DNA from: Centroscyllium fabricii
Lineage: Eukaryota
Assembly: GCA_051313645.2 (NCBI GenBank)
Contig: JBNRSN020000007.1
Coordinates: forward strand, 240,374,001 to 240,438,000
DNA length: 64,000 bases
Reading direction: 5' to 3'
Positions 18,601 to 21,600 of the stretch are shown piece by piece; within the stretch, counting starts at the first letter, position 1, and the number at the start of each line of letters is the position of its first letter. The notes beneath the pieces are model-generated. The model had not been told where the DNA came from. It worked only from the letters and a program-made list of their open reading frames with translations, and made no database searches. Both the position numbers and the translations under genes were made by a program.

Positions 18601-21600
18601 ACTGTGGGAGGAAACCAGAGCACCCGGAGGAAACCCACACAGACACGGGGAGAATGTGCAAACTCCACACAGATAGTACCCGAGGCTGGATTTGAACCTG
18701 GGTCTCTAGTGCTGTAAGGCAACAGTGCTAACCACTATGCCACCGTGCCGCCCCTAACCTTTTGTAACCTTATCACTAATTCCTGCAAATCCACTGTCGA
18801 GCAATACAAAAGAGTCAGACCCTGATATTTCAAAAGCTATGAATGGCGTTGTATACTGTGCTTAGTATACTGGTTAATGCCTGTAACTTCTCAAGCAGCT
18901 AGTTCTTAATATAGGCCAGGTACTCACTGGGGTGAAGAATGCTGCACTGGTGAGGAATTATATTCCCTGGGCCACTTGAATATATCTGCTGAAAGTTAGT
19001 TATAGACTAGCTTTAGCAGAGCATGTTACCTGCCACCTTTTCCCATTCCTCAGTTTAAAAAAAACAAATTAAGTTTAAAATTTTAAAGCTAATGAAAGGT
19101 CAGATTGTTTGAAAAGACTCGAGGGGCTGAATGGCCTACTCCTGTTCCGATGCTCCTCTGTTTGCAAATCAGTTGCATTTTTTTTGTTTGGAAACTAATA
19201 GAAATCTACATGTGAACTTCCTTAGCCATTTTGAAACAAATGAGGCTGTGGAGTCTTGCTCCAGTAGGTAGTGAATTGTTCCACGGGGTAAGATTAAGGT
19301 AACAGGTGCACCCAAAACCAAATCCAGCAGACTATACTAGGACAAATGGATTAGTTGTCCAGAACCCATAGGCATCTAAAAATCAGATACCCAAGTGTCA
19401 CAGTGAATTCGAACACTCCTGCCTTTCGTGGCCCTGGATTTGAATTGCCCCTCGTTGACAGAATGCAAGTCTCTAATCTTGGGATATAAGGCTCTTTTAC
19501 AGTTGCCATTATGGTTCCTGTTTGATGCATATCCAACTGCATATAACTGTCTATTTATAATTGAACACCGAAATGGAAGCCCGAAGCAAGTGTGGCATAT
19601 TAATGCAACTGGGAATATGGCACATTGTTGGATCCCAATAGTAGGAGCTTTACTCCTGTGCCTGGAACTGCTTGATAGTTTATACTGAGTGGCCAAAGTG
19701 TTTTGTTTCACAGCACTGACCTCCTTTACCCCTGACTACCTTGGTGAGCACAAAAGTTCACACGTTGAAAATTGACACAGAAGCATAACAGAAAACTGGT
19801 TTGCTACACAACGTCAGACCACAGAGAAGGATGCCAAACTTCCAATCAAACCGGCAAATAAGTAGGAAATACTCCCCCTTCTCCCTTCCCCAGTAAAAAT
19901 ATCCAACAATACCAACCACAGAATGGATTGCTGGGTGAAAATGTTATAAAAGGAAACTCCCCATCGGTGATGTCAGTGGTAAAAACTGAGCCAAGTTGGA
20001 ATTTACTGAAATATCAAGTCTTGATGTCCTGAATTCAGGCAGCAGCACTGGGCATTGTACATCACTTGGAATTTTACAAATACTTTAAAAAAAATTAAAA
20101 ACTGCTTATTCTTAGATGGTACATAAATACATATTTGTTTGCTCCTCAACTGTTAGAAAATCTGGGTGGAACATGAACTCCTTTTTGATTTTGTACAGTT
20201 CCTGATCAACAGTAAAATTTGTTTACCAACTACAACTGCAAATCTATCTATATCCTCCCCACACAAGCACCTATGGCCTGTTTCTCAAAGCAGCACTGAA
20301 TCTGCACCTCCCCCAGAAATGTTGCTTTATTTGTGGCCACTGTTACAAAGCACTGATCCACCTTCATTCTTAACTGGCTACCTTTTCACAACTTGCTGTT
20401 TGAATCCCTTGCTTGGTTTTTATCCTACTGAGATTACCTTAGTTAAGGCACCAGCAATATCTACTAAATTTAGCAATCATTCTTTTGATGTAACTTAATA
20501 CAGTTTCCATACTGAGAGTGGTTTATAGTCACGTATGTATTGGGAAAGAGAATTGCAACAAATTATGACATGCTTGGAAAATCAGGTCTAAAATAAATGT
20601 TAGAAAAAGATATTCTTTGTAGCCATGCACAATGTTTTGGGCCATTACAGGGATAATTGTGATTTGATCAAATCTCCATATATATCCTATTATGTAAAAA
20701 TATGTTGATCTTTGTCAAGTTGATTTGTACTTGGTTTTAGGAATTAGCAGTGTTAACTCTTATTTCCTCAATTGAACAGGTTTTCTTCAAAGAGATTTTC
20801 CTCAATATTTTGGAGACGTCCACAAGTACATTTGAGCACAAGTGGATGGTCATTCAGACTCTGACCAGGATTTGTGCGGGTAATGTGTTTTACAATGCTT
20901 TCCACCTTTTAGTTGTAGCTTGTGTTGTTGTGACTCATGTTTCAAGATTCTTCTCAGCACAGCTGAGGAATTTCTTTTTCTGTGTACAGGTTGAGCACCG
21001 TTAATCCGGTAACCGAATAGCCGGCAGCTTCAGTCTGCCGGCACAAATTGCCCCGACTGCACTGCGCATGCGCAAAATGGCAGCCGCCATCGTGGCTTCA
21101 ACGAATGATCTGCGCATGCGCCGAGCGCATGCGCAGATCATTCAAAACAGCTGCGGGTGTTTTGAATGATCTGCGCATGCGTCGCCGGAAGGTTAGCGCA
21201 TGCGCAGATAATTCAATACGGCCGCCGGTTATTTTATCGATAACTGTAATTGAAGCCATGATGTGGAGGTGCTGGTGTTGGACTGGGATGGACAATTGTA
21301 AGAAGCCACACAGCACCAGGCTGTAGTCCAAAAGTCCCACTCGAAATCACGGGCCTTCGGAGCGCCGCTCCCCCATCACCTGACGGGGAAGCGGCGCTCC
21401 GAAAGCCCGTGACACCAACTAAAACCGTTGGACCACAGCCTGGCGCCGTGTGACCTCTTACAATTGAAAGCAAAACAGGGGATTGGATAAATTGCCGACC
21501 CGCGCCTTCCTCCTTCCCCCCGACCCGCGCCACCCTCCTTCCCGACCCGCGCCACCCTCCTGCCTCCCCCCGCAAGACCGGCCTTTCACTGCTGCCCGAC

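Follow-up and report, generated by a model that had tools for sequence, protein, structure and literature searches.

The window, a 64,000-nucleotide stretch of Centroscyllium fabricii DNA, holds a short DNA transposon with a fold-back retroelement copy inserted in it, as well as an unedited sister of that copy (Table 1). With terminal inverted repeats, a TA duplication and many dispersed copies, the host element has the marks of a MITE, which we take to be Tigger-like from its end sequences and the TA duplication. The ends of this MITE diverge fast between subfamilies (L056-L121, L168-L205), mostly by transversions, and the inner cargo differs among subfamilies. The question whether other copies of the host MITE carry the same insert had been raised by an earlier reading made from the letters of the window (the sequence-only reading). 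They do: the exact junction between insert and MITE has 3,260 matches in the 7.2-Gb genome, whose repeat content resembles that of cartilaginous fish, and the junction letter of the window is present in 93 of the first 100 junction matches listed. Most copies in a position-ordered sample possess both MITE ends, each with its own TA flanks. Seven MITE copies are empty, each holding the 11-bp target once.

Table 1. Positions of the insert, its host transposon and the sister copy within the window
Feature	Position	Strand	Remarks
Host non-autonomous DNA transposon (Tigger/pogo-like MITE)	20987..21826		840 bp, bounded by inverted repeats and flanked by duplicated TA (20985-20986, 21827-21828)
Target-site duplication of the insert, left copy, 11 bp	21248..21258	+	A>G at 21255 assigned to round 2
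Penelope-type tail, unpaired, 38 nt	21259..21296	-	free of T>C; differs from the earlier MITE form by one A>G, at 21269
Left arm (Penelope sense on minus strand)	21297..21374	-	11 T>C, 4 A>G, 1 other relative to the family
Right arm (Penelope sense on plus strand)	21385..21462	+	11 T>C, 4 A>G, 3 others relative to the family
Candidate minimal type I hammerhead motif	21376..21412	+	by eye; cleavage-site U lost in round 1, core altered in round 2
Target-site duplication of the insert, right copy	21462..21472	+	diverged in the late subfamily
Unedited sister fold-back, same family	6397..6708		tandem 53-nt hammerhead segment; 12-bp duplication at 6385-6396 and 6709-6720

The insert belongs to a family with a Penelope-like layout, in which the arms are inverted head to head, only one of them bears a tail and the target site is duplicated. 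A layout with an inverted terminal repeat and a tail is described for Penelope-like elements (PMC3846280); the tail is defined in PMC11167929 and PMC3846280 and sits between two internal reverse-transcription start sites (PMC11167929). The frame linked to one family copy, L046, matches PF01541 (GIY-YIG) with E=5e-4 and 20.7 bits, below the cut-off of 22.6. Read by eye, the consensus of 29 family copies contains a hammerhead motif of the minimal type I class (PMC4209133), a putative ribozyme. An Rfam scan of the window gave no hammerhead match and returned only hairpin-type miRNA models under their cut-offs. Elsewhere in the window two GC-rich tandem repeats were noticed at 22946-23289 and 27256-27503, with units of 14/29 nt and 31 nt. 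The sister copy and its flanks are duplicated on another contig (L026, C327).

The family consensus was built from 29 copies of the fold-back repeat. The sister copy agrees with it and has retained the ancestral family state (6399-6708). Compared with this consensus, the two arms of the window copy show T>C at 22 sites, A>G at 8 and other changes at 4 (C>A, G>A, T>A and A>C), which reproduces the counts of 22, 8 and about 4 that the sequence-only reading had given for the paired arms. As it had also claimed, the opposite arm has a T>C across from the A>G at 8/8 sites; one of these, 21393, took the path A>T>G in the lineage. The unpaired leader, said to be free of T>C, is indeed so, with T>C at 0/9 T positions of the 38-nt tail. 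Folding of the insert yielded -158 kcal/mol for the minus strand vs -118 kcal/mol for the plus strand. In contigs from two organism-A DNA runs, which may be the assembly's own source, the letters of the window predominate at sites in the arms, 21426 among them.

The MITE lineage changed stepwise, in strand-pure bursts, and each of its forms was mobile as a TA-flanked DNA transposon. Relative to the family, the 32 copies of the early filled form have T>C at 19/45 T positions and A>G at 0/45 A positions (P=3e-7). This conversion of 42% in round 1 agrees with the 40-50% given for long perfect duplexes (PMC11019741). A test of the 5' neighbour on the lineage of the early form was not significant (5' G 3/9 vs 20/36, P=0.28). 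A search for the unedited filled MITE gave 0 matches to one 30-nt exact junction pattern, which a decayed copy could escape. The next form, represented by L204 and by L205, whose right arm is mostly lost, gained 9 A>G in one step, 2 of them outside the arms, and no T>C. In L204 the A>G changes hit 7/18 sites of A·C mismatch and 1/28 other A positions of the arms in addition to the 2 outside, with T>C at 0/26. Starting from the L204 type, further changes were added in the order of one A>G (L203), one T>G and three T>C (L202), one G>A and one T>C (early late form) and one A>T (main late form). The form in the window is thus the L204 type plus 8 mixed changes. Two of these steps are pair-restoring transversions and no ADAR changes, namely T>G at 21393, seen in both second-round lineages, and the later A>T at 21327. 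Comparison of the consensus forms showed zero C>T reversions at the round-1 sites. L204 was also considered as a chimera of early and late forms, which is ruled out by its two flanks, both being intermediate.

The order of the forms was examined with a tree of 56 copies built from the MITE flanks only, with CpG columns masked, rooted on the empty copies and omitting copies that lack an end. The tree runs from the empty copies to A1, then to A2/A3 and then to the intermediates plus the window type (100% support). Among the first 100 of 2,563 right-arm matches there were 7 copies of the early form, 90 of the late form, 3 of the late form with CpG decay and no intermediate. Intermediates came only from another pattern, which had 159 matches, and 10 copies were flagged among the first 100 listed: 4 intermediates, 4 members of an independent set described below and 2 copies of the late form minus one change. 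Inspection by eye of the MITE's own inverted ends and inner palindromes revealed no A>G cluster, and there were 0 matches to one forced pattern for another plus-strand round on the ~3,000 late copies. Alignments of the MITE right end, being confounded by indels, were set aside. A third editing round is only suggestive because the changes after round 2, 8 in number, equal the rough expectation from the fast-changing flanks. The last 4 T>C of the lineage, all with a 3' G, may reflect a light third round or ordinary drift. A low-depth contig from run X5 (organism B) that spans window positions 21394-21501 has a right arm of the early form running into MITE flank, giving a weak hint that round 1 is older than a species split.

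An independent second round was found in four paralogous copies on contig C745 (L198-L201), which share their own set of changes consisting of A>G only. Here 10/18 A·C sites and 4/28 other A positions were changed, with T>C at 0/26; the latter 4 A>G lie at A:T pairs and create mismatches. Two of the four copies are in the tree, and these (L198 and L200) fall outside the clade of intermediates plus window. A retroelement was considered as the site of L198-L201 and rejected, as the copies reside in intron 2 of intron-intact ferritin genes. The ferritin genes are transcribed opposite to the A>G strand, so the host pre-mRNA was not the template. In the tandem ferritin cluster as a whole (G000, C745 4.76-4.82 Mb and 5.10 Mb; L198-L201, L237 and L240) the edited MITE is present in four paralogs and absent from two neighbours.

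Hyperediting of the fold-back family is not confined to the window lineage, besides which we found at least 35 independently hyperedited copies. Two patterns, each forcing two T>C, gave 16 and 41 matches, of which 46 were fetched. After removal of 4 duplicates, 2 MITE copies and 3 copies that were scored with the SINE-source family described below, 37 loci were scored, and 23 of them showed at least 4 further T>C. With the forced sites excluded, these 23 loci carry 318 T>C, 7 A>G and 56 other changes, with T>C at 4/94 positions of the tails. The edited fraction depended on the 5' neighbour and was highest after U (58/82, 0.71), followed by A (153/253, 0.60), C (72/172, 0.42) and G (35/145, 0.24). 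ADAR1 and ADAR2 have the 5' neighbour order U>A>C>G (PMC11019741), and this order was obtained in two pooled sets, the 23 pattern loci and the SINE-source family. The neighbour preference of ADAR demanded by the sequence-only reading is therefore clear on the 5' side in pooled independent copies, whereas the window lineage taken alone falls short of significance and a preference for 3' G is absent from the arms (0.33 and 0.45 in the two pooled sets) and weak in the SINE part (P=0.013). The P values of pooled copies are overstated since the same sites recur across copies, and in the SINE-source family T/C columns were treated as ancestrally T.

Judged from the flanks of fetched loci, the family comprises ~100,000 copies as a rough estimate, which makes the edited copies a small fraction. 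Single-copy edited loci are known from the assembly sequence; an assembly artefact is unlikely in view of the 12 differently edited daughters and the parent-daughter pair described below. The flanks of L145 (~600-900 bp left of the match), L127 and L139 contain a CR1-like fragment and Penelope body sequence in which T>C changes are dense on the strand that is edited in the arms, which indicates that hyperediting reaches other repeats. Further single loci had features of their own. In the fold-back L165/L166 (C911, 13.15 Mb) two variants recur as mirror images in the left and right arms, a pattern that would arise if a new insertion had both its arms copied from a single template, or one arm copied from its partner. 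L138 (C1, 57.17 Mb) is a fold-back with arms of ~300 bp, hyperedited throughout both, and lies at the same target sequence in a repeat as L126. The first tail base, mostly T in the 29 family copies, is C in L122 and in L129/L242; in L129 it is not an edit, because the unedited parent L242 also has C.

At other loci the route from RNA to DNA can be followed: SINE-tailed read-through transcripts carry hairpins and flanks to new sites, with edits only in the paired arms and on the transcript strand. A flank search retrieved 15 full matches to one source unit composed of flank, fold-back, spacer, SINE and repeat tail. Adding two copies from the pattern search and subtracting two duplicates and one unaligned copy (L216) left 14 scored copies. 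Twelve of the 14 are edited in the arms, each differently, while one is unedited and one is without arms. The arms have T>C at 172/522 and A>G at 5/532 positions, compared with T>C at 25/1,484 in spacer, tail and far flank, and the edited fraction by 5' neighbour is 37/58 (0.64) for U, 77/150 (0.51) for A, 28/120 (0.23) for C and 8/70 (0.11) for G. The SINE part of five copies bears 8-32 A>G on the SINE sense strand, which identifies the edited strand as the transcript strand; hyperediting was seen in 0/55 other SINE copies. The same identity of edited and transcript strand holds for L129. A search with the inversion junction of L129 uncovered its unedited parent, L242. Parent and daughter have in common a stretch of 1,244 bp that leads from a SINE through 450 bp of flank and a fold-back with target duplication into ~120 bp of MITE. 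This MITE is whole in the parent, and the daughter ends ~120 nt inside it, from which it follows that such transcripts carry MITE sequence. Relative to L242, L129 shows T>C at 40/88 positions of arms and loop, 0/9 of the tail and 7/165 of the flanks. The pair also demonstrates that the target duplication flanking an edited fold-back can stem from the parent copy. More broadly, a downstream SINE-type tail was present for the edited strand in 7/22 edited loci, vs 0/22 for the other strand and 10/84 for control sides (P=0.045), and 15/22 edited singletons have no SINE-type tail within 1.5 kb. That SINEs borrow the tails of LINEs is established (PMC3747384).

We propose that ADAR edited a read-through RNA and that reverse transcription then brought the edits into the germline, where the arms of the insert preserve them. 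This likely happened twice, on opposite strands, and we give the reading a probability of about 0.78. An unedited fold-back would first have inserted into a MITE. A minus-strand transcript across the filled MITE would then have been edited and retrocopied by a LINE-type reverse transcriptase, and this first retrocopy, having kept its inverted ends, could have founded the amplified subfamily. The plus-strand transcript of a descendant, a hairpin with A·C mismatches, would have been edited and retrocopied in turn, yielding the founder of the lineage of ~3,000 copies. We thus infer that the MITE itself took the RNA route twice and resumed cut-and-paste each time; under this explanation the amplifying lineage would need two RNA passages. 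The sequence-only reading had proposed that the minus-strand hairpin RNA was hyperedited and reverse-transcribed, and this is supported by one-strand T>C in both arms, by the spared tail, by dozens of independent copies with ADAR context and by the parent-daughter pair. It had further assumed that mismatches were then fixed across the hairpin or by re-copying of an arm. The A>G changes better fit a second, plus-strand round at A·C mismatches, given an intermediate with A>G only and an independent round that also acted at A:U pairs, yet the two pair-restoring transversions point to some arm-templated correction. In the hammerhead motif, as read by eye, the cleavage-site U was lost in round 1 and the core changed in round 2. 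The suggested role of editing as a retroelement defence is unsupported, because the hammerhead was altered through its antisense strand and it was the edited form that went on to multiply.

The edits might also have been laid down without retrocopying of a whole MITE, through deamination of DNA in an RNA:DNA hybrid or through cDNA of the element's own edited transcript, primed for example by the Penelope enzyme. In favour of such writing in place, ADAR edits dA at dA-C mismatches of hybrids in vitro (PMC5389660), and the Penelope enzyme in vitro can initiate reverse transcription at internal sites and nick the terminal repeat of its own element (PMC11167929). It would suit the position of both second rounds within intact TA-flanked MITEs, the MITE ends without edits and the outcome of our search, in which no founder retrocopy of either MITE form was found. 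Where the route is visible, however, as in the SINE-source family and in L242/L129, it is ordinary retrocopying with flanks, and the orientation of the ferritin genes deprives L198-L201 of the host pre-mRNA as template. We consider writing in place improbable, and likewise its implication that germline ADAR rewrites chromosomal hairpins so that even a cut-and-paste transposon receives strand-alternating bursts of A:T to G:C changes which found subfamilies. Another reading keeps ADAR for round 1 and ascribes the A>G changes to mismatch repair of hairpins at the DNA level (re-copying of an arm, G:T repair or GC-biased conversion). We regard this as unlikely: although all 8 window A>G face C, two transversions restored pairs and round-1 sites lack C>T reversions between the consensus forms, the changes affect isolated sites, are reciprocal in the two arms and lie scattered among mismatches that escaped repair, and the mismatches in CpA context at 21312 and 21315 were left unrepaired in the window lineage. 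Repair also fits poorly with 9 A>G arising in one step, 2 of them outside the arms, with the 4 A>G of L198-L201 that make mismatches out of A:T pairs, and with 23 singletons that have just 7 A>G beside 318 T>C.

Polymerase eta favours A after A or T, which overlaps the observed pattern. Misreading of T or A in hairpins by an error-prone polymerase of the eta/iota type, or by a reverse transcriptase, is nevertheless very improbable, as 33-49% of sites were altered, all of them within paired arms and on the transcript strand alone, and AT-rich flanks copied in the same event were spared. Hardly any weight falls on the GC-rich form being the ancestral state, a distinct Penelope subfamily of old age or an error of assembly. 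It is true that this form is the consensus of ~3,000 copies, an abundance that the sequence-only reading had named as grounds for abandoning the idea of editing. Abundance is no refutation, since the insert had already changed when the DNA transposon amplified it. All copies have a single insertion site in common, in a MITE with a known empty form, the ancestral A is kept in partner arms, changes accumulate from form to form along the tree, and contigs from the DNA runs carry the letters. Ancestry and an old subfamily are refuted by the empty MITE copies, the counts of the early form and the flank tree.

ADAR editing of read-through RNA followed by reverse transcription has partial counterparts in known systems. 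Two avian retroviruses show hypermutation of the ADAR type (PMC12925331), where close to 50% A-to-G in an inverted-repeat region was likewise recovered after reverse transcription. Those are exogenous variants, whereas the copies described here are inherited chromosomal non-LTR and DNA-transposon copies at dozens of loci, one of them amplified ~3,000-fold. APOBEC-edited LTR retrotransposons of vertebrates (Knisbacher and Levanon, PMC4866542; Zaranek et al., PMC2873906) also display strand-biased deaminase clusters in genomic copies compared with a consensus, but these are G-to-A changes on cDNA, while ours are A-to-G changes on RNA, restricted to duplex arms and transmitted via read-through transcripts. 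Porath et al. (PMC5625713) reported massively edited Penelope RNA in lizard, heavy hyperediting of brain RNA in elephant shark and a palindromic DNA repeat as the top hyperediting target in frog; in the cited portion of that work the edits are in RNA, with no return to DNA described. The insert resembles Penelope-like elements (PMC3846280, PMC4209133, PMC11167929) in its head-to-head arms, one-arm tail and target duplication, to which a candidate hammerhead motif and a possible linked GIY-YIG remnant may be added, and differs from them as a hyperedited passenger in a DNA transposon. Its host, in turn, has the short inverted ends and TA duplication of non-autonomous Tigger/pogo transposons, which occur in cartilaginous fish (PMC9219625); unlike these, the lineage appears to have passed through RNA. 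The openly accessible articles searched contained no earlier report of ADAR-edited chromosomal copies of non-LTR elements or DNA transposons.

These data mean that RNA editing has entered inherited DNA sequence repeatedly in a vertebrate germline. The edited copies are single-molecule records of past ADAR activity whose parents are still in the genome, and their edit patterns serve as barcodes for source loci and for the spread of fold-back Penelope insertions. Our results further suggest that RNA can be a stage in the history of a DNA transposon lineage. Editing also adds a mutational route that raises the G+C content of hairpins and can found a transposon subfamily in one step, in which case dating based on divergence would mislead.
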